Positions 4,257 to 61,481 of a stretch of DNA of 64,000 nt are shown in pieces; the stretch's first letter is position 1, and every line of letters begins with the position of its first letter. The translations under genes were made by a program, and so were the position numbers. Source of the stretch: Bacteroides fragilis (lineage in GTDB: Bacteria; Pseudomonadota; Alphaproteobacteria; Rs-D84); assembly GCA_963630775.1 (NCBI GenBank), contig CAVGNU010000004.1, forward strand, positions 859 to 64,858. The letters are read 5' to 3'. The notes under the pieces are model-generated. The model was not told the DNA's origin and did not search any database. It saw only the letters and a list, made by a program, of their open reading frames with translations.

Positions 4257-5309
4257 TTACCCAAATACGCGTACCAAATCGTTCCACATCGTCAGTATAA
4301 ACAGTCCGGCAATCAACAACCACCCCGCGATGATAACATATTCCATCGCGCGCCCCTGTAATTTACGACGTGTAATCCCTTCGATTACCAATATCAACAA
4401 ATAGCCACCGTCCAACACCGGCAACGGCAACAGATTTATAACAGCCAAATTCACCGACAGCAAGGCAATAATAGACAGCAATGCAAATATGCCCGCCTCC
4501 ATCGCTTTGCCGGATACCTGTGCAATGGTGATAAACGACCCCAGTTGCTTTGACGAACGTTCGCCCGTAATAATTTGTTCCAGCACCACCAACAATGTCT
4601 TGGACTGGTAATACGTTTCGCGTGCCCCCGTCAGCAATCCGCCAAAGAACCCTTTCTTGCGTAATTCGGTCTTGCTGCCGTCGGCAATCAGGCCCCAGCG
4701 TTCGGCAGGCGACAATTCAACATTTACCAATTTTTCACCGCGTATAACAATCACGTTTGCATTGCGGTTTGATGCAATTTCTTTGGCGATAATCAGTTCG
4801 CCCCAATTTGTGATTTTTTCGCCATCAATGCGAACAATGGTGTCCCCAGGTTTAATGCCTGCCTTGAACGCGACAGATTCCTGAATAACCTGACCGACAA
4901 CGGGTAATTGGACATTCTTTGGATGGAACATCGCAATCCCAGAATAAATAAACCATGCCAGAATAAAGTTCATGGTAACGCCGGCGGCAACAATTATAAA
5001 CTGTTTCCATGCGGGCACAGACAGGTAGTGCCCCACCTTTTTATCGGCGGGCAATTCTGCATATGCCTTGCGATCAAACATCATTTCTTGGCCGTAAATG
5101 GAAACGTACCCACCCAGCGGCAGGCATGCGACCTGCCATTGTGTGCCGTGTCGGTCATGCCATTTGATAATTGCCGGCCCAAATCCGATTGAAAATTTAT
5201 CAACACGGACGCCGGACGCGCGTGCGGCAAAAAAATGTCCCAATTCGTGAATAAACACGACCACGCCCAACACAACCATCAATGCAATCACAGCCACAAT
5301 AGTATGCAT
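4257..5309 (-). CDS. rseP: RIP zinc metalloprotease RseP
   Basis: 350 aa with the HELGHF motif in the first TM helix, a central PDZ-like region and an LPLPVLDGG motif. Confidence 0.93.
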   Translation of the reverse strand: MHTIVAVIALMVVLGVVVFIHELGHFFAARASGVRVDKFSIGFGPAIIKWHDRHGTQWQVACLPLGGYVSIYGQEMMFDRKAYAELPADKKVGHYLSVPAWKQFIIVAAGVTMNFILAWFIYSGIAMFHPKNVQLPVVGQVIQESVAFKAGIKPGDTIVRIDGEKITNWGELIIAKEIASNRNANVIVIRGEKLVNVELSPAERWGLIADGSKTELRKKGFFGGLLTGARETYYQSKTLLVVLEQIITGERSSKQLGSFITIAQVSGKAMEAGIFALLSIIALLSVNLAVINLLPLPVLDGGYLLILVIEGITRRKLQGRAMEYVIIAGWLLIAGLFILTMWNDLVRVFG

Positions 5310-5342
5310 TACTTTCCGTTCCTTTACATTTACAAATCTGCG

Positions 5343-5993
5343 TTACAACATAATCAGCCAAACCAAGGGCAGGGCATAAATCCAGCCATCGAACCGATCC
5401 AGCATTCCGCCGTGCCCTGGTAAAATATGACCAAAATCTTTGATGCCCATACGACGTTTTATCCAACTGGCGGTCAGGTCACCATATTGGCTCAGTAACG
5501 CGATACTAATCCCAATCCACATCAGTTGTGGCATAAATGTATCAGTGCCCAACAACCCATACAGCAACGCCATAAATGTCCCACATATAATACCAGCAAT
5601 CTGGCCCGCCCATGTCTTGTTCGCGGACAAGCGTTCCCACATCTTGTCCCCGCCCAACATACGGCCAAAGAACCATGCGCCAATGTCCGCGCCACTGATT
5701 GTCACCAGCAGCAACAGAACAATCCATGGACGCGTTGCCACGGTATTTATCGCCGCCAACATCACAAATAACCACACCAAGAACCCGCCATAGACCAGCC
5801 AATTTTTATTTTGGCACAACTGTTCTTTTGGTACATGACGAATTGCCATAATCATTTCCAGAATCATACCCAGTACGACCAAAATCCCCAGATAGCGTAC
5901 CGCATGGAATCCATATTGTTCCGCCACCGCGGCCGCGACCACCACCGCCGCCATAATTGTGCCAACGATAATTCTCTGTGATGTGTTTGACAT
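5343..5993 (-). CDS. cdsA: Phosphatidate cytidylyltransferase
   Basis: Multi-TM protein with C-terminal signature SQYGDLTASWIKRRMGIKDFGHILPGHGGMLDRFD. I placed the start at ATG 5993 (AAGGGG RBS), which avoids overlap with uppS; the ORF track extends to 6059. Confidence 0.88.
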   Translation of the reverse strand: MSNTSQRIIVGTIMAAVVVAAAVAEQYGFHAVRYLGILVVLGMILEMIMAIRHVPKEQLCQNKNWLVYGGFLVWLFVMLAAINTVATRPWIVLLLLVTISGADIGAWFFGRMLGGDKMWERLSANKTWAGQIAGIICGTFMALLYGLLGTDTFMPQLMWIGISIALLSQYGDLTASWIKRRMGIKDFGHILPGHGGMLDRFDGWIYALPLVWLIML

Positions 5994-6003
5994 ATCAAAC
6001 CCC

Positions 6004-6765
6004 TTATTTTTGTTTGCCAGAATAATTCGCCTTTTTTCCGCCACCAAATCTGCGGTCACGATGCGCGTATTCGTCCAGTGTGTGCTGCCACATCCGTTCG
6101 TCTTTGACCAAATCAGGCCAGTGTTCAGGTACGAACATCAGTTCGGCATACGCCAATTTCCACAGCAAGAAATTAGAGATTCTAAATTCATTGCTGGTGC
6201 GAACCATCAAATCAATCGGTAACAAATCGCCCGTATCCAAGAATGTTTCAAACGTTTCGCGGGTAACAGGTTTGCCGGCGGCAACCGCGGCATTGACCGC
6301 GTCAATAATTTCGCCCTGACCACCATAGTTCAATGCAAACACAACTGTGCCACCGGTGTTTTCAGCCGATGTTTCTTCCAGTTTATCGCACATATGTGCC
6401 AATCGTTTTGGCAAACGGTCACGCGAACCCACCACACGATAGCGCAAGTTTTTTTCAAGCGCGTGCTGCATATTCTTTTTTAATTCTGTATAGAACAAGT
6501 CCATCAGATAATCCACTTCTTCCTTGGAACGATTCCAGTTTTCGGTGGAAAATATAAAGAACGTTACCGTGGATACGCCGCGCGCAATGTACCAATCAAC
6601 CAGATTTTCAAAGTTTGCAATTCCGGCCTTGTGTCCCAACAACGGGGGCAGACCGCGGGCCTCGGCCCAGCGGCGATTACCGTCGCATATAAATGCGATA
6701 TGCTGTGGTACGCGCACAGGGGCGCTGGCGACATTATTTACCTTCTTTTTGAATATTCTAAACAT
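6004..6765 (-). CDS. uppS: Undecaprenyl diphosphate synthase
   Basis: HIAFICDGNRRWA and FLLWKLAYAELMF signatures. ATG at 6765; the track's TTG at 6777 is an alternative start. Confidence 0.93.
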   Translation of the reverse strand: MFRIFKKKVNNVASAPVRVPQHIAFICDGNRRWAEARGLPPLLGHKAGIANFENLVDWYIARGVSTVTFFIFSTENWNRSKEEVDYLMDLFYTELKKNMQHALEKNLRYRVVGSRDRLPKRLAHMCDKLEETSAENTGGTVVFALNYGGQGEIIDAVNAAVAAGKPVTRETFETFLDTGDLLPIDLMVRTSNEFRISNFLLWKLAYAELMFVPEHWPDLVKDERMWQHTLDEYAHRDRRFGGGKKANYSGKQK

Positions 6766-7383: not shown

Positions 7384-7465
7384 ATTCAGATCTCCTTCTT
7401 GTGTAAAAAGGTTAGCAAATTGATTTGACATTTGGCAAGAAGAAATATAAAATGTGTCGGCGCAA

Positions 7466-7541
7466 GGGGTTGTAGCTCAGTTGGTAGAGCACTTGCATGG
7501 CATGCAAGGGGTCGTCGGTTCGAGTCCGATCAGCTCCACCA
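7466..7541 (+). tRNA. tRNA-Ala (anticodon GGC)
   Basis: Hand-folded cloverleaf. Acceptor GGGGTTG/CAGCTCC carries the G3:U70 Ala identity pair. Anticodon loop is ATGGCAT, T-loop is GGTTCGAGTCC, and CCA is encoded. Confidence 0.95.
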
Positions 7542-7546
7542 GTATG

Positions 7547-7623
7547 GCGGATGTAGCTCAGTTGGTTAGAGCACTGGTTTGTGGTACCAGGTGTCGCCGG
7601 TTCGAATCCGGTTATCCGCCCCA
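7547..7623 (+). tRNA. tRNA-His (anticodon GTG) with encoded G-1
   Basis: 8-bp acceptor GGCGGATG/TATCCGCC including G-1:C73. Anticodon loop is TTGTGGT, T-loop is TTCGAAT, and CCA is encoded. Confidence 0.95.
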
Positions 7624-7634
7624 TTTTAACAGAA

Positions 7635-7662
7635 AACGTCAACCGAAAGGTTGGCGTTTTTT
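7635..7662 (+). terminator. Intrinsic terminator after the tRNA-Ala/tRNA-His pair
   Basis: aacgtcaacc-gaaa-ggttggcgtt hairpin followed by a T-run. Confidence 0.7.
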
Positions 7663-7900
7663 GTTAAACCGGTTCGTCTATTCACCGGATTCGAACCGAG
7701 GTTCGCTTACGAGTAAGCGTGGCAAGTTGTATAACGCCGCCACGCGCTAACGAGTGGTGAGCGCAGCGAACAATACGCAGCTGTCCAGCATTGCTGGACA
7801 GCAAGGCACTCGGTTATCCGCCAGCCGAATTGCTGCCCGCCGTTCAGGCGGGTATTTTTAATAATTCTGGGCGGGTCGGATTCGAACCGAGGAATGGGAA
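7663..7900 (+). repeat. tRNA-3'-linked repeat element (about 1.5 units), same family as 51096-51659
   Basis: ggattcgaaccgagg occurs at 7687-7701 and again at 7878-7892, 191 bp apart. Blocks gagtaagc, gctaacg, gtgagc and acgcag are colinear with the tRNA-Arg-linked unit. There is a perfect hairpin at 7780-7802. A 12-nt copy of the tRNA-His 3' end (cggttatccgcc) lies at 7811-7822. Confidence 0.65.
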
Positions 7901-7953
7901 TGCGCCATCCGGCGCACTCATCTATTATCTGTTATCTATTCTCTATGCTCTAA

Positions 7954-23899: not shown

Positions 23900-24235
23900 T
23901 TATTTGGTGTTCATATTTTTCAGTGCATTGGCAACAACCGCTTTGTCAATTCGCTTTAATTTCCATGTGTCCAATGCGCGTTGAAACATTTCAACCTTGT
24001 GTGTGTCAAATTCGGCCGGCATCATGTCGCCCTTTATAGAATTGCAAATCTGGTGCGCTGGGAACAGGTTATCACGATAATCCGTGCCACCATGCATTTT
24101 TGGGATATGGTGGTCAATGGACATCTTTTGATTTTTCAATATTGGTTGACCGCAAATACTGCAATATACATCGTCGCACAGCAACAGTTCAAATTTCAAT
24201 GTTATGGTTATTTTATGTGTTTCTGTGCGTTCCAT
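23900..24235 (-). CDS. Stand-alone HNH endonuclease
   Basis: CSICGQPI...DHHIPKMHGGTDYRDNLFPAHQICNSIKGD is an HNH/CxxC motif. ATG 24235 has a GAGGT RBS. Confidence 0.8.
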   Translation of the reverse strand: MERTETHKITITLKFELLLCDDVYCSICGQPILKNQKMSIDHHIPKMHGGTDYRDNLFPAHQICNSIKGDMMPAEFDTHKVEMFQRALDTWKLKRIDKAVVANALKNMNTK

Positions 24236-24349
24236 GTGCGACCTCAATAAAAGTATATTATGCGATAACAATAGCGTCTTTTTGCCACCAATGTCAATGG
24301 GTTTTGTGCCGACAGAATGTGTGTGTTTTCGTTGACAAACGACAGGTGT

Positions 24350-25852: not shown

Positions 25853-26092
25853 ATGATAGATAATGCGATGTTTTGGTCTGCGATCGACAATTTAGCGGCG
25901 GCGCATCATATATCGTGTTCGCATATGGCGCGCATCAGTGGCATTGACGCCACCGCATTGAACAAGAGCAAGCGCGCCGGTACGGGTGGTCGTCGATATT
26001 GGATGTCGGTCGGCACATTGGTCAAGATTCTGGCAGCGACGCATACAGAATGGGCAGATTTCGCGAAATATTTCCCACAAAATTCTAAATAA
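25853..26092 (+). CDS. Small helix-turn-helix DNA-binding protein (phage-repressor-N-terminal-like)
   Basis: MIDNAMFWSAIDNLAAAHHISCSHMARISGIDATALNKSKR... matches the 'IW.AID.LA...GLS.SGLAR.AGLD.T.FNKSKR' family common in alphaproteobacteria. GGGGGCGA RBS. Confidence 0.7.
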   Translation: MIDNAMFWSAIDNLAAAHHISCSHMARISGIDATALNKSKRAGTGGRRYWMSVGTLVKILAATHTEWADFAKYFPQNSK

Positions 26093-50809: not shown

Positions 50810-51095
50810 TTCATTGTCATTCCGTGGCGCGCCCACGGAATCTAGGTTATGGTGTTGCGCCATCGGCGCATATATTTGTCATTCCTGCTCCGGGCCCCGC
50901 AAAATCGTAAGATTTTGTGGGTGGGCAAAGGCAGGAATAGAGACTAAGCAGTGCGAACGTAGTGAGCCAACCAAAAGACCACCTCCCCGCTACGCGGTAC
51001 TCCTCCACAGGAGGAGAACTTGCTACGTTCTTGTCGCGGGCTAAGTTCCCCTCCGGTGGAGGGGTGTCCGCAGGACGGGGTGGTCTTTTTATCTT
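50810..51095. repeat. Second mosaic cluster of the same palindromic modules (C-G, B with nested D, F-E', E)
   Basis: C is at 50814-50846 and G at 50855-50870. B arms at 50876-50888 and 50931-50940 are split by D at 50892-50924. F is gactaagcagtgcgaacgtagtgagccaa. E-left-like ttcccctccggtggaggggtgtc lies at 51046-51068. Confidence 0.8.
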
Positions 51096-51659
51096 TGGGC
51101 GCGCCCAGAAGGATTCACTCGACCGTCGGATTGAAAATCCGCCGTGTCTGCGTGGCATTCGTGACGGCTCGCCTGCGTTAGCACTTGGCTTACCTACTCA
51201 TTGTCGAACCCTCTGGTCGGGTTCGAACCCACGGGCACACAACAATTTAATGAAAAACACCGCACAAGGCGGTGTCCTTCATTAAACTGGCGCGCCCAGA
51301 AGGATTCACTCGACCGTCGGATTGAAAATCCGACGTGTCTGCGTGGCATTCGTGACGGCTCGCCTGCGTTAGCACTCGGCTTGCCTACTCATTGTCGAAC
51401 CCTCTGGTCGGGTTCGAACCCACGGGCACACAACAATTTAATGAAAAACACCGCACAAGGCGGTGTCCTTCATTAAACTGGCGCGCCCAGAAGATTCACT
51501 CGGTATTTGCGCGTGTGCACAAATACCTGCGTGGCATTCGTGACGGCTCGCTTGCGCTATCGCTTGGCTTGCCTACTCATTGTCAAACCCTCTGGTCGGG
51601 TTCAAATCCTTGGACGCACAGCATAAATTAAACCGCCGACAAAGCGGCGGTTAAATTCA
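51096..51659 (-). repeat. Three tandem ~190-bp units, each ending (in tRNA orientation) with a copy of the tRNA-Arg 3' end (20 nt in units 1-2, one deletion in unit 3)
   Basis: Units are 51096-51287, 51288-51478 and 51479-51659 (the third is diverged). On the plus strand units 1-2 begin with tggcgcgcccagaaggattc, identical to 51660-51679 of tRNA-Arg; unit 3 begins tggcgcgcccagaagattc, a 19-nt copy lacking one g. Each unit also contains the hairpin cgtcggattgaaaatccgacg, the T-arm-like gggttcgaaccc and a terminator-like hairpin acaccgcacaaggcggtgt. Confidence 0.88.
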
Positions 51660-51736
51660 TGGCGCGCCCAGAAGGATTCGAACCCTCAACCTTCTGATCC
51701 GTAGTCAGATGCTCTATCCAATTGAGCCATGGGCGC
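51660..51736 (-). tRNA. tRNA-Arg (anticodon ACG)
   Basis: The reverse complement folds with acceptor GCGCCCA/TGGGCGC, anticodon loop CTACGGA, T-loop TTCGAAT and encoded CCA. Confidence 0.95.
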
Positions 51737-59083: not shown

Positions 59084-59989
59084 ATGAATACACAAAATAC
59101 ACAAACTTATTCTGGATTCGTGGCTATTGTTGGCCCGACCAATGCTGGCAAAAGTACCTTGTTGAATCAAATTATGGGACGCAAGGTATCCATTGTTTCG
59201 CACAAGGTTCAGACCACGCGAACCAATCTGCGTGCCGTAAAAATGGTGGGCACACGCCAGTTGATTTTTGTCGATACCCCTGGGGTATTCGTGCCAAAGC
59301 GTCGATTGGATCGGGCAATGGTTGGTGCGGCAATGACGGCGATATCAGACGCGGATGCGGTCTTGCTGATTATGGACGCGAACAAGGGAATTACGCAAAC
59401 CATTCGCGATTTGGTTGAAAAAATCCATGACCATAAAAACCTGTTTGTCGCATTGAACAAGGTTGATGCAATTAAAAAGCAGGATTTGTTACCGATTGTT
59501 GCCGAATTGTCCCAGATGGCGGACTGGCGCGAAATATTCATGATTTCGGCCCTGAAAAATGACGGGGTTGATGGTATGTTGGACGCACTGGCCGCGGTAA
59601 TGCCGGCATCGCCATATATGTTTGACGCGTCTGACGCGGTGGATGTGCCCGACAACCTGTACCTGTCGGAATTGACACGGGAAAAGATTTATAAATATAT
59701 TCACCAAGAATTGCCGTATCACATCAATGTATTGACCGAACGGGTTGATGTTGACGCGGACGGGGTCTTGGATATATACCAGAAAATCGCCGTTCAGAAC
59801 GACGCGCATAAAAAGATTGTAATTGGCCGTGGTGGTGAACAATTAAAGCAAATTGGCACCGCTGCCCGCCATGATATTCAGGATCAATGGGGCGTGAATG
59901 CGCGCCTGCACTTGTTCGTGCGCGTTGAACCCGATTGGGAAAACAAGGCCGAAAATTACGCGGATCAGGGGTTGGAGTTCACAAAATAA
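59084..59989 (+). CDS. era: GTPase Era
   Basis: G1 GPTNAGKST, G3 DTPG, G4 NKVD and a C-terminal KH domain (IVIGRGGEQLKQIG). Confidence 0.95.
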   Translation: MNTQNTQTYSGFVAIVGPTNAGKSTLLNQIMGRKVSIVSHKVQTTRTNLRAVKMVGTRQLIFVDTPGVFVPKRRLDRAMVGAAMTAISDADAVLLIMDANKGITQTIRDLVEKIHDHKNLFVALNKVDAIKKQDLLPIVAELSQMADWREIFMISALKNDGVDGMLDALAAVMPASPYMFDASDAVDVPDNLYLSELTREKIYKYIHQELPYHINVLTERVDVDADGVLDIYQKIAVQNDAHKKIVIGRGGEQLKQIGTAARHDIQDQWGVNARLHLFVRVEPDWENKAENYADQGLEFTK

Positions 59990-59990
59990 A

Positions 59991-61481
59991 ATGCTGCACA
60001 CATCGGACTTTGATTTTGAATTACCAACCGAATTGATTGCATCGCACCCATTGGCGCGTCGCGATGCATCCCGTATGCTGGTGGTAAAACATTCCCCTCC
60101 GTTGGAGGGGTGTCGCGAATGCGGCGGGGGGGGCAGAGATTCCGTAAATTACAGAACATTGCCGTTTAACAGCGAATTAAAAGAAAAAGCACGCGCTTTG
60201 CGTCATGCCGGCAGTTTGCCAGAAGCACTGTTGTGGCAAGAAATCAAAAATCATCAACTGAACGGATTGGATTTTGACAGACAGAAAATCATTGGTAATT
60301 ACATTGTTGACTTTTTCTGTGCATCCAAGTTTGTCGTTATAGAAATAGATGACAAGGCAACACATGATTTGAAAGCAGAATCCGATGCCGCACGCGATGA
60401 ATATATGCGTGGTTTGAATCTGACTGTTATACGAATACCAGCGGCGGATGTGTTGAAAGATGCGCATGCGGTTTATCTGTGGCTTTCTAACCACCCCGCC
60501 TTGCAGGCACCCCTCCAACGGAGGGGAACTTGTGTTGATCTGTCGGATCGGCATATTCGGGATTTTTTGGATTATATTCGCCCAGGCGATGTGGTGGTGT
60601 TTAACAATTCGCGTGTGATTCCGGCGCGCTTTGATGCGACCGACACGGCGGGGCACGAATATGAAATCACACTGCACACCGCCGCAGGCGGCAAACTGTG
60701 GTGGGGCCTGTGCAAGAAATTCACGCGCATTGCGGTTGGCGATACATTGAGCATGACCGACGGCACGCAAATCCGCGTGGTGGATTCTGACGCCGACAGT
60801 GGTCTGAAACTGGAATTTTTATGTGATGATGTGTTCGCGGTTCTAAATAAAATCGGCAAAATGCCATTGCCACCGTACATGCATCGTGATCAGGAAGATT
60901 CCGACCGTGAACGGTATCAGACCGTTTATGCGGATCCAATCGGGTCAATGGCGGCCCCAACGGCTGGATTGCACTTTACACCCGAATTGATGGACGAAAT
61001 CGCGCGTCGTGGTGCACAGATTGTCAAGGTTACCCTGCACGTCGGCGCGGGTACATGGATGCCTGTCAAGACCGAGGATTTAACCCAGCACAAAATGCAC
61101 AGTGAATGGTGTCAGATTACGCCCGCACAGGCGGACATTATAAACAATGCAAATCGCGTTATTGCGGTTGGAACGACATCGATGCGTACACTGGAAAGTG
61201 CGGTAATACGCAACCGTGTGTTGCCGGAATCCCAGCGTTGTCGCCGTGTTGTGCCATTTTGCGATACAACCGATATATTTATTACCCCTGGGTACGCGTT
61301 TGGGGCGGTGGACGTGTTGCTGACGAATTTCCATTTGCCAAAATCGACACTGTTTATGTTGGTTTCGGCGTTTGCGGGCCTGAATGAGATGAAGACCGCA
61401 TACGCGCACGCGGTGGCGGAAAAATACAGATTCTTTTCATACGGCGATTGTTGCCTGTTATTCAAAAAGGATGCACAATGA
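59991..61481 (+). CDS. queA: S-adenosylmethionine:tRNA ribosyltransferase-isomerase QueA, interrupted in frame by a DUF559 cassette
   Basis: From ATG 59991 the translation is MLHTSDFDFELPTELIASHPLARRDASRMLVV. QueA homology resumes at ~60535 (LSDRHIRDFLDYIRPGDVVVFNNSRVIPARF ... GTTSMRTLES ... LLTNFHLPKSTLFMLVSAF). At ~496 aa it is much longer than the ~350 aa typical size. The track start at 59898 overlaps era. Confidence 0.9.
   Translation: MLHTSDFDFELPTELIASHPLARRDASRMLVVKHSPPLEGCRECGGGGRDSVNYRTLPFNSELKEKARALRHAGSLPEALLWQEIKNHQLNGLDFDRQKIIGNYIVDFFCASKFVVIEIDDKATHDLKAESDAARDEYMRGLNLTVIRIPAADVLKDAHAVYLWLSNHPALQAPLQRRGTCVDLSDRHIRDFLDYIRPGDVVVFNNSRVIPARFDATDTAGHEYEITLHTAAGGKLWWGLCKKFTRIAVGDTLSMTDGTQIRVVDSDADSGLKLEFLCDDVFAVLNKIGKMPLPPYMHRDQEDSDRERYQTVYADPIGSMAAPTAGLHFTPELMDEIARRGAQIVKVTLHVGAGTWMPVKTEDLTQHKMHSEWCQITPAQADIINNANRVIAVGTTSMRTLESAVIRNRVLPESQRCRRVVPFCDTTDIFITPGYAFGAVDVLLTNFHLPKSTLFMLVSAFAGLNEMKTAYAHAVAEKYRFFSYGDCCLLFKKDAQ
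60092..60533 (+). mobile_element. TIR-bounded DUF559 (Vsr-like/restriction-endonuclease-fold) cassette inserted in frame in queA
   Basis: Perfect 21-bp inverted repeat: ttcccctccgttggaggggtg (60092-60112) and cacccctccaacggaggggaa (60508-60528). The interior encodes SPPLEGCRECGGGG followed by LKEKARALRHAGSLPEALLWQEIKNHQLNGLDFDRQKIIGNYIVDFFCASKFVVIEIDD..H...D..RDEYMRGLNLTVIRIPA, which is the DUF559 pattern. Exact boundaries are uncertain by a few nt. Confidence 0.72.

Follow-up and report, generated by a model that had tools for sequence, protein, structure and literature searches.

The window analysed here, a stretch of 64,000 nucleotides in its full length, is DNA of an uncultured gut alphaproteobacterium, and it carries non-coding modules of about 150-200 bases behind its tRNA-His and tRNA-Arg genes. 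At the His locus, where all features lie on the plus strand, the sole promoter-like site (TTGACA-17-TAAAAT, 7425..7453) is located upstream of tRNA-Ala and tRNA-His. The tRNA-His(GTG) gene occupies 7547..7623, and its 3' half, with the T arm (7598-7612), the acceptor 3' strand and CCA, is copied into the His-linked unit that follows at 7624-7825. An intrinsic terminator within an extended palindrome lies at 7625..7668; its arms (7625-7644 and 7649-7668) are 20 nt long and 90% complementary, and it forms the centre of a larger palindrome made of the tRNA 3' half and its inverted copy. Then comes the 5' module (7680..7701), an inverted copy of the tRNA-His T arm that contains GGATTCGAACCGAGG. 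Positions 7684-7698 and 7598-7612 are 100% complementary, which gives a perfect 15-nt inverted copy of the T arm; GGATTCGAACCG is part of it and had been missed in the first-pass annotation. GGATTCGAACCGAGG is found exactly at 7687-7701 and 7878-7892, with a spacing of 191 bp. With up to two mismatches allowed, chance would give 0.07 matches and 4 were seen; besides the two exact sites they are the opposite-strand T arms of tRNA-Ala and tRNA-His.

The central part of the unit is a type-A body (7699..7808), which a profile built without the window matches at E 1e-15. Two helices are proposed in it, GTTCGC (7701-7706) with GCGAAC (7766-7771), and ACGAGT (7709-7714) with ACGAGT (7750-7755), the latter with tandem G.A; its conserved single strands include GGTGAGC and AATACGCAG. 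A variable hairpin (7780..7802) with perfect 11-bp arms (7780-7790 and 7792-7802) stands directly before the 3' module (7809..7822), whose CTCGGT pairs with ACCGAG of the 5' module. Here CGGTTATCCGCC (7811-7822) is a 12-nt direct copy of the tRNA-His 3' end, matching 7609-7620, and AGC is found at this copy in place of CCA. A second intrinsic terminator (7834..7860) is the counterpart of the one right behind tRNA-His in unit-less relatives (L003). It is followed by the stub of a next unit, CTGGGCGGGTCGGATTCGAACCGAGG (7867..7892), which retains an acceptor-5'-like strand and an inverted T loop and is broken off by a fragment of a REP/MITE-like element. The terminator, 15-nt repeat, hairpin and 12-nt end copy named in the first-pass annotation were all found in place.

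The second locus lies on the minus strand, with tRNA-Arg(ACG) at 51660..51736 and a promoter-like site at 51775-51748. Arg unit 1 (51479..51659) has a t2-type terminator, the 5' strand GCGTCCA, hairpin X and the end ...TTCTGGGCGCGCCA, and its 5' module together with the tRNA-Arg 3' half makes palindrome arms of 41 nt. Arg unit 2 (51288..51478) is 191 nt long and has the 3' end copy GAATCCTTCTGGGCGCGCCA, in which TGGGCGC pairs with the unit's 5' strand GTGCCCG. Arg unit 3 (51097..51287) is nearly identical to unit 2, with GCGCGCCC as its end. The array has a period of 191 bp with 2.7 copies at 51098-51603. A distal remnant of the tRNA-Arg 3' end, GTGGGCGCGCCA (50825..50836, minus strand), adjoins the flank CGGAATGACAATG, which is conserved among the relatives and shows where the array region has its far limit.

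The order of a unit is intrinsic terminator, 5' module, conserved body, variable hairpin and 3' module. The 5' module is an inverted T arm of the resident tRNA, with or without the acceptor strand, and the 3' module is a direct copy of the resident tRNA 3' end, mostly with CCA. Besides type A there is a body of type B, and two or three types are mixed within one array. The family was found directly 3' of tRNA-His(GTG) or tRNA-Arg(ACG), on the same strand, in metagenome-assembled genomes of gut Alphaproteobacteria (Ca. Enterousia and relatives). A body-specific pattern gave 15 matches in genomes and 12 in metagenomes, and 12 and 8 of these, respectively, were located just behind one of the two tRNA genes on the same strand. 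Two more genome matches were fragments of His arrays with the tRNA beyond the stored stretch. The five remaining matches came from outside the lineage and are probably fortuitous. One is the genome locus L013 (Acidimicrobiales), where no tRNA could be seen, and the other four are metagenome loci (L027, L029, L033 and L037) within ORF-like sequence. A weak profile match at window positions 25878-25940 was set aside as well, as coding sequence. The His locus has one unit and a stub in the window and up to four units in L012/L015, and the same body was found at two tRNA loci of one genome in two cases (L010 with L016, L028 with L031). Only 2 of the 5 tRNA loci in the window carry units; the tRNA-Lys and tRNA-Asn loci have plain terminators and no units, and the first-pass annotation had seen no clear copy there. 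Among the relatives, L003 lacks this His unit and has the terminator directly behind tRNA-His. For conspecific Arg loci we searched for the exact thymidine kinase protein, which gave one contig that stops just before the array.

Colinear blocks had been proposed between the His and Arg bodies. This did not hold with the window alone, in which the pairwise alignment gave z 0.4 against a dinucleotide shuffle, not above background, and a covariance model built on the Arg units gave the window His unit only 6.6 bits. With more sequences the relation could be recovered. A profile of His units matched three Arg units in 450 kb, two of them at E 4e-5 to 6e-5, and when the window's own His unit was left out three Arg matches remained at E 1e-3 to 2e-2. 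The His unit of L017 aligned with Arg bodies at z 5.4-6.6 and reached 33.9 bits (E 6e-6) with the Arg covariance model. The homology of His and Arg bodies stands on the profiles and on L017 as the one bridging His unit.

Unit ends matched the local tRNA allele at every related locus showing both the tRNA and a complete 3' module. GGTTATCC vs GGTCATCC is one example. A T/C allele was tracked in this way, and species-specific tRNA variants were copied in the ends, CTGGTCACCC in L058 and CCCGGTCACCC in L059, where both the inverted and the direct modules follow them. However, the terminal segment does not always equal the neighbouring tRNA, since in L034 one unit of a tRNA-Arg array ends in ATCAGCTCCACCA, which is the tRNA-Ala 3' end. 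The earlier statement that the body is conserved while the tRNA-matching end differs is borne out by the His and Arg ends here, the Ala end in L034 and the Tyr end of the analogous RtT of Escherichia coli. The 5' and 3' modules are complementary in a tRNA-specific manner. Arg 5' modules paired with Arg 3' modules at -16 to -21 kcal/mol, and for the two Tyr modules the value was -20 kcal/mol, whereas the mismatched Arg 5' with His 3' combination gave -6 to -11.5 kcal/mol. The window His unit, with the module ends alone, gave -8.8 kcal/mol; it is one of several His units whose closing helix is weak. A paired change at two positions keeps this helix, ACCGGA/UCCGGU in L005-type units vs ACCGAG/CUCGGU in the window unit.

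In folding, the His unit had a z-score of -4.4 and the Arg unit one of -3.2. In the proposed structure 90% of cells pair, against 29-40% with the partners slid. One helix is shared, as ACGAGU/ACGAGU in His units and AUGAGU/ACGAAU in Arg units. Covariation is thin: most helices are invariant, and both partners differ in only 3 of 45 pairs, all of which sit in one hairpin. No helix other than that hairpin, the variable one before the 3' module (7780..7802 in the window), shows compensatory changes between species. In type-A His units, position 1:72 is a mismatch. There were 20 G.U and 23 A.C pairs, and this balance means that the wobble test picks no strand and does not separate RNA from DNA structure. 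Promoter-like sites were predicted upstream of the tRNAs only, with none inside the units at either locus, and a good intrinsic terminator stands between the tRNA and every unit, so read-through has to be assumed. A riboswitch or T-box was ruled out by the lack of a correctly oriented gene downstream, and a protein-coding reading by indels that are not multiples of three.

The type-A units are 88-97% identical between species, while the four-fold sites of rne are just 41-58% identical. Conservation in the units far exceeds that at neutral sites, the four-fold sites being saturated, and the bodies are conserved as strongly as the tRNA gene itself. Substitutions in type A cluster in loops and hairpin stems, and long junction segments are invariant. 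The identity across species could instead mean recent horizontal spread and not selection, but the terminator stems next to the units have diverged and nevertheless pair, and this speaks for units that have long been at the site. Within species, units of the arrays were gained, lost and permuted. L002 and L003 differ by a deletion that took place between two direct repeats, each about 60-75 nt long, an A-B pair is duplicated in L012/L015, and a further array difference, between L005 and L007, is accounted for by recombination. Of the first-pass idea of a mechanism that copies or targets the adjacent tRNA end, the part that stands is that ends follow the local allele; a dedicated machine is not required, because long direct repeats and recombination explain the within-species differences.

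The layout is not new in kind, because the tyrT/RtT repeats of E. coli are built alike. Publications on RtT in E. coli go back to the late 1970s; to our knowledge its function has not been settled, and it has been treated as a peculiarity of the tyrT operon. Egan and Landy are said to have described a 178-bp repeat period in the tyrT-tyrV operon in 1978, and Rossi et al. in 1981 and Bösl and Kersten in 1991 reportedly studied RtT and these repeats. RtT is reported to be a discrete small RNA released and stabilised by tRNA processing. rttR is derived from the repeat unit (PMC3318445). Both RtT and the units here stand directly behind a same-strand tRNA gene as tandem units of about 180-190 bp. 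The E. coli unit ends in the tRNA-Tyr 3' end, from the T loop through CCA, and an inverted copy of the same tRNA segment upstream in the unit pairs with this 3' copy and closes the RNA (GGGGAAGGAU as 5' strand with AUCCUUCCCC in the Rfam consensus structure). Next to it is a hairpin of T-loop-like sequence with a GACCA-containing loop at equal offset; the loop motif CGACCA-AGGTTCGA has the same offset as CGACCAGAGGGTTCGA in the Arg unit. The motif GGATGAGAA is common to RtT and the B- and C-type 5' modules here.

The differences are also clear. The tRNA is tRNA-Tyr in E. coli and His, Arg or Ala here, and an association with tRNA-Tyr was not found. A terminator precedes each unit here, while E. 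coli has none between tRNA and RtT. The closing helix of the Arg units spans the whole acceptor strand, while the last 9 nt of RtT stay free; two or three body types occur per array, and the units carry no tpr-like ORF. There is no detectable similarity in sequence or covariance model. The Rfam RtT model (RF00391), which scores the E. coli copies at 134-138 bits, gave no RtT match, also with the cut-off relaxed to E<=10, for the His unit, the L058 units, the Arg array or one Arg unit taken singly. Other Rfam matches, at gathering threshold and at E<=10, were weak chance matches such as sX14 and miRNA families. Conversely, the Arg covariance model R1 had no match on E. coli RtT, and an E. coli RtT unit aligned with the units here at z ~1. 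Since neither the Rfam RtT model nor the Arg model scores across, homology with RtT is unproven, and the RtT-like layout could have arisen by convergence.

Several other explanations have to be weighed. The units might be integrative mini-cassettes or att remnants (CIME-like) served by a tRNA-targeting tyrosine recombinase encoded elsewhere; small circles would insert at the tRNA 3' end, regenerate it and leave a displaced copy, and the body would resemble the attP arm region. It would fit that direct tRNA 3' end repeats bound every unit, with the proximal copy restoring tRNA and terminator, that unit size is near a typical attP, that cassette order varies among genomes and presence or absence is clean between conspecific contigs (L001/L002 vs L003), and that the tRNA-His 3' flank is a hotspot of other insertions (L009, L061). 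Tandem accretion and presence varying between strains are likewise known from tRNA-gene tandem islands and CIMEs. But the units are gene-free and 150-200 bp long, carry an inverted tRNA copy inside each unit, and have strongly conserved bodies, to the same degree as the tRNA gene. Three or four tRNA ends occur on one body family, which is unexpected under an integrase of fixed specificity. The flanks of related loci with listed genes (precomputed Pfam lists) had no called integrase, a pattern scan of viral contigs gave 0 matches and blastn of the units against phages and plasmids gave none, so the earlier argument that a fixed-specificity integrase/att system fits poorly could be kept. Identity to the tRNA also starts at 12 to 20 nt depending on the unit type, which may speak against one fixed crossover, and the direct repeats of about 60-75 nt flanking the differences are enough for ordinary homologous recombination. 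We consider such cassettes improbable. We give a similarly small chance to a mobile element acting at the DNA or single-strand level, either MITE-like with terminal inverted repeats or integron-attC-like, in which recombination would take place at the palindrome (tRNA 3' half, terminator, inverted copy), with the bodies as the cassettes. Its attraction lies in the long palindrome arms (41 nt at the Arg locus), in module exchange exactly at these arms (the same B body with t1 or t2 centre, L002 vs L001), in the balance of G.U and A.C mismatches without an RNA-strand signature, in a fixed-position mismatch retained in the hairpin before the 3' module (alignment read by eye), and in larger DNA inserted within or beside units (L020, L061). 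Yet profile searches of the window and 450 kb of related DNA found no units away from the tRNA-His and tRNA-Arg loci. MITEs have many dispersed copies at unrelated sites with target-site duplications, and this was not seen; the tRNA end is the only such duplication. Sequences after CCA differ from one unit type to another, inspection revealed no conserved GTTRRRY-type core behind the unit boundary as in an integron cassette array, and neither transposase nor integron integrase was seen. Homologous recombination equally predicts breakpoints in the sole shared sequences.

The units could also be a functionless by-product, persisting junk duplications left by unequal crossing-over and palindrome extension at tRNA terminators. 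Tandem near-identical copies (Arg units 2 and 3), the common stubs and REP/MITE-like-interrupted units, and species without any units (L043-L047) would be expected then. On the other hand, type A keeps 88-97% identity despite saturated four-fold sites and its junction segments are invariant, the same body is maintained at two tRNA loci per genome (L010/L016, L028/L031), and E. coli retains an analogous element, so that we find this quite unlikely. Hardly credible to us is a functional RNA from the opposite strand with a tmRNA-like layout, which would have an acceptor-5'-like start and, at its end, an entire T arm with an acceptor-3'-like strand behind it. Read by eye in reverse complement, the 5' module is indeed a full T arm and then an acceptor-like strand, several terminators are near-symmetric palindromes, and the wobble count does not favour the tRNA strand. 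However, CCA is kept on the tRNA strand and absent on the opposite one, the G.U pairs of the Arg closing helix turn into A.C there, most terminators have a T run in the tRNA direction only, and no promoter-like site was found for it. ARAGORN and the Rfam models called neither tRNA nor tmRNA in the units and returned only the five genuine tRNAs of the window. A likeness with the tRNA-like domain of tmRNA and with mascRNA-type tRNA-like 3' ends, which serve as signals for processing or stability, is that the 5' and 3' ends form an acceptor-like stem ending in (C)CA, with the RNA bulk between the two paired ends; the difference is that the units, on the tRNA-sense strand, have no complete T arm beside the 3' strand.

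With moderate confidence, we read the units as RtT-like RNA modules of tRNA trailers, which recombination and gene conversion would keep in step with their tRNA. They would be co-transcribed as trailers of the tRNA operon through terminator read-through, and the 5' and 3' modules would pair around the body as a tRNA-like acceptor/T-type stem with (C)CA at its end. By analogy with RtT, this stem would let the tRNA-processing machinery free and stabilise a discrete small RNA, and the most natural guess for its job is to mimic an uncharged tRNA end. Both modules would be copies of the resident tRNA 3' half, which may be why the terminal segment looked swapped. Exchange with the tRNA gene, through unequal crossing-over and gene conversion, would keep the direct copy identical to the tRNA; the inverted copy would stay matched through hairpin-templated correction in the terminator-centred palindrome, selection on the closing helix, or both. 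Bodies would shift between tRNA loci through recombination in the common T-loop-derived sequences.

The RtT layout is now seen behind other tRNAs and in a distant uncultured gut lineage, and this suggests that the units and RtT may be a general class of tRNA-specific elements. It points to a hallmark of the class, a body closed by a helix of inverted and direct copies of the resident tRNA 3' half, by which any genome can be searched for members. The role of the tRNA-like end can be tested directly on the natural end-swap variants (His, Arg, Ala, Tyr). More speculatively, and with low confidence, RtT-like elements might form a broad unrecognised superfamily in Proteobacteria of functional tRNA-acceptor mimics, being exchangeable and re-targetable cassettes behind tRNA genes. 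Re-targeting would then be palindrome-directed conversion that copies the resident tRNA 3' half in both orientations. In the body one would expect a conserved, structured RNA that has its own dedicated partner, such as a factor sensing uncharged tRNA ends or one related to tRNA processing or tRNA toxins.

The second 15-nt copy 191 bp behind the one in the His unit and the 191-bp period of the Arg array, both reported in the first-pass annotation, were confirmed. The equal spacing at the two loci is probably coincidence, because unit lengths in the arrays of relatives vary, roughly 175-200 bp. The tRNA-His 3' flank also takes insertions other than these units, in L009 and L061.

That one family of non-coding units carries tRNA-specific ends is a real finding, and related loci support it more strongly than the window itself. 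ARAGORN placed tRNA-Ala at 7466-7541 (+), tRNA-His at 7547-7623 (+) and tRNA-Arg(ACG) at 51660-51736 (-). Behind tRNA-His, the terminator hairpin reported by the first-pass annotation is present as a palindrome at 7625-7668, and its perfect hairpin (7780-7802), its 12-nt copy of the tRNA-His 3' end (7811-7822) and its two exact copies of GGATTCGAACCGAGG (7687-7701 and 7878-7892) were all recovered. The only near matches to GGATTCGAACCGAGG in the window were opposite-strand T arms of tRNA-Ala and tRNA-His, and a perfect 15-nt inverted copy of the tRNA-His T arm (7598-7612), missed earlier, lies at 7684-7698. The 191-bp period described for the Arg array was confirmed with 2.7 copies of the repeat, each terminated by CTGGGCGCGCC(A). 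The same locus holds a palindrome whose arms are the tRNA 3' half plus terminator (41 nt) and the opening of the first unit.

A unit begins with a terminator, frequently an extended palindrome, and continues through a 5' module, a body and a variable hairpin to a 3' module. This last part repeats 12-20 nt of the resident tRNA 3' end in direct orientation, usually with CCA, and the 5' module is an inverted T-arm copy, to which many units add part of the acceptor 3' strand. Both modules track species-specific tRNA variants, namely T versus C at the acceptor base, the CCAG/CTGG T stem in the related locus L058 and the GTCGG...TTCGAAC T arm in L059. Because both follow the resident tRNA, complementarity between the two modules is specific to the tRNA. 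In the window His unit, the 3' module deviates from the tRNA sequence, with CUCGGU (not UCCGGU), and is matched by ACCGAG (not ACCGGA) in the 5' module. Pairing of the Arg 5' module with the Arg 3' module gave -16 to -21 kcal/mol, against -6 to -11.5 kcal/mol with the His 3' module; E. coli Tyr with Tyr gave -20 kcal/mol. One possible drawing of the Arg unit runs from the acceptor 5' strand through an 8-bp hairpin (UUCGAACC/GGUUCGAA) with a GACCAGA loop and the body to the T-stem and acceptor 3' strands, with GCCA last. In three genomes (window 7823-7833, L011, and L004 at the same position) NGCCGA(A/C)TT stands in place of CCA behind the His 3' module; it is found in units of differing body type, and is therefore a variant junction that cassettes have in common.

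From the window alone the evidence that the His- and Arg-linked units are related is marginal: His body against Arg body gave z 0.4, which is shuffle background, and a covariance model built from Arg units scored the window His unit at 6.6 bits. Once relatives were included, the relationship was upheld. A His-unit profile matched two Arg units at E 4e-5 to 6e-5 (450 kb searched), and three at E 1e-3 to 2e-2 when the window His unit was left out. The His unit of L017, another related locus, aligned to Arg bodies with z 5.4-6.6 and was matched end to end by the Arg covariance model (33.9 bits, E 6e-6). The window His unit clearly belongs to the His family (E 1e-15, profile excluding it). A body-only profile reached only E 0.13-0.34 on Arg units, so most of the His-Arg similarity falls within the unit's 5' third. 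The first-pass annotation was right to infer a single body family whose ends are specific to the tRNA.

The frr protein encoded nearby assigns the organism to an uncultured lineage of gut Alphaproteobacteria. A body-specific pattern was searched against GTDB (one genome per species) and metagenomes, and gave 15 genome loci and 12 metagenome loci. In 12 of the 15 and 8 of the 12, the match immediately followed tRNA-His(GTG) or tRNA-Arg(ACG), on the strand of the tRNA; these MAGs carry the labels Alphaproteobacteria, Ca. Enterousia or 'Rickettsiales'. A further two genome loci were pieces of His arrays with the tRNA beyond the stored stretch. The remaining five were outside the lineage and look like chance, the four metagenome ones being in ORF-like sequence. 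His and Arg loci co-occur within genomes (L010 with L016, L028 with L031). Bodies are of two main types, A and B, with L058 providing a third, and arrays mix them: the window has His-A-stub, L016 and L011 have His-B-A, L005, L017, L019 and L022 have His-A-B, L012/L015 have His-(A-B)x2 and L007 has His-B*-A-B. Some species (L043-L047) lack units altogether.

RtT of E. coli is laid out in the same way. The region downstream of tyrV holds three repeats which are Rfam RtT (134-138 bits). The E. coli unit ends in AATCCTTCCCCCACCACCA, the tRNA-Tyr 3' end; upstream, GGGGAAGGATGAGAAGC is an inverted copy, which the Rfam consensus structure pairs with the 3' copy. CGACCA-AGGTTCGAC stands at the same offset as CGACCAGAGGGTTCGAC of the Arg unit, and GGATGAGAA is found again in the present lineage, in 5' modules of types B and C. 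The Rfam RtT model scored none of the lineage's units tested, the Arg covariance model gave E. coli RtT no score, and pairwise alignment gave z of about 1. So the element is built like RtT and probably works like it, though by test it is outside the Rfam family, and the likeness may be homology or convergence. The finding gives an old and unexplained element of E. coli a wider setting, and renders it tractable.

The most probable reading, to which we give about an even chance, is that of an RtT-like trailer RNA module in which recombination and gene conversion, and probably also selection for the closing helix, keep the tRNA-derived ends matched to the resident tRNA. The descriptive findings are far surer than the proposed function of the RNA. 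Rival explanations are mini-cassettes mobilised in trans, palindrome-based DNA elements, junk duplication and an RNA read from the opposite strand. Among contigs sharing an frr protein, the differences are of entire units: L002 reads His-t1-B-t1-stub, L003 reads His-t1-stub, and direct repeats of ~60-75 nt (3' module, terminator and start of the 5' module) flank the part that differs. L001 and L004 have the same B body with a different terminator in front, unit content varies among L005, L006 and L007, and the Arg arrays of the window and L036 show terminator and hairpin types in permuted combinations. L034 has an Arg-type unit joined to the 3' half of a B unit that finishes in the tRNA-Ala 3' end, with no tRNA-Ala called within 1.5 kb of the match. 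Such changes are the expected product of homologous recombination and unequal crossing-over between shared modules, and the special machine proposed earlier for copying or targeting tRNA ends is not needed. No integrase was called in the flanks of related loci with listed genes, and no similar sequence was found in viral, phage or plasmid collections. Terminator stems adjoining the units are wholly changed in sequence with pairing kept, which argues for long residence at the site and not recent spread. Type-A units are constrained: they are 88-97% identical between species whose rne four-fold degenerate sites, at 41-58% identity, are close to saturation, and exceed the nucleotide identity of rne itself (81-86%). 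Their substitutions fall in loops and hairpin stems, with long junction segments invariant (GGTTCGCATACGAGT, AACGAGTGGTGAGC and GCGAACAATACG among them).

Single units fold more stably than their shuffled versions (z -4.4 and -3.2), and in the proposed helices 90% of cells pair, against 29-40% with slid partners. Both-sided changes occur in only three pairs, all in the hairpin preceding the 3' module; one helix, with a C-G to U-A change around tandem G.A, is common to His and Arg units. G.U pairs number 20 and A.C pairs 23, an even balance, and therefore these counts do not tell RNA from DNA, or one strand from the other. What speaks for the tRNA-sense strand is the retained CCA, the direction of most terminators and the G.U pairs in the Arg closing helix.

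Several other elements lie around these arrays. The units are repeatedly broken up or cut short by a REP/MITE-like palindromic element, …CATTGCGAGGAATGAAATGACGAAGCAATCCAGT…GCGCC-loop-GGCGC…CTGGATTGCC…CGCAATGAC (L010, L011, L016, L026, L031, L036), of which the window holds fragments at 7893-7917 and about 50852-50870. Another palindromic element, rich in GC (GGACACCCCTCCACCGGAGGGGAAC…CTCCTCCTGTGGAGGAGTACCGCGTAGCGGGGAGGTGGTC; window 50986-51079 (-), also L010, L016, L031 and L036) sits between the last Arg unit and a distal tRNA-Arg 3'-end remnant; its sole Rfam match was spurious. Heptamer-like repeats (ATCTATT x3.9, form TCTATTATCTATGCTCTA) at window 7920-7946, and in L011, L016 and L034, mark the far end of arrays, at His loci and, in L034, at the Arg locus behind the Ala-ended unit. 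In L059/L066 a 30-nt hairpin insertion splits the 3' module of a B unit downstream of tRNA-His (CCCGGTCAC | ATACATCGTGAAACGATGTGGCAATAATTG | CCCCGCCCCA).

In L061/L065 the B unit found behind tRNA-His in L059 (same frr protein) is replaced by a different sequence with a small GIY-YIG gene; this tRNA 3' flank is hypervariable within a species. In L020 a 2.2-kb insert (4268-6446) splits a type-A His unit in the apical loop, and its ORFs encode 432 aa with a weak HNH match and 208 aa without a Pfam family. A free-standing HNH endonuclease gene (123 aa, window 23900-24271 (-)) is found downstream of tRNA-Asn, at a distance of a few hundred bases. The queA ORF (527 aa, window 59898-61481 (+)) carries an in-frame DUF559 endonuclease-like domain at residues 93-192, which splits the Queuosine_synth domain into two stretches, and the residues on either side of this insert may be a translation of the GC-rich palindromic element of 50986-51079.
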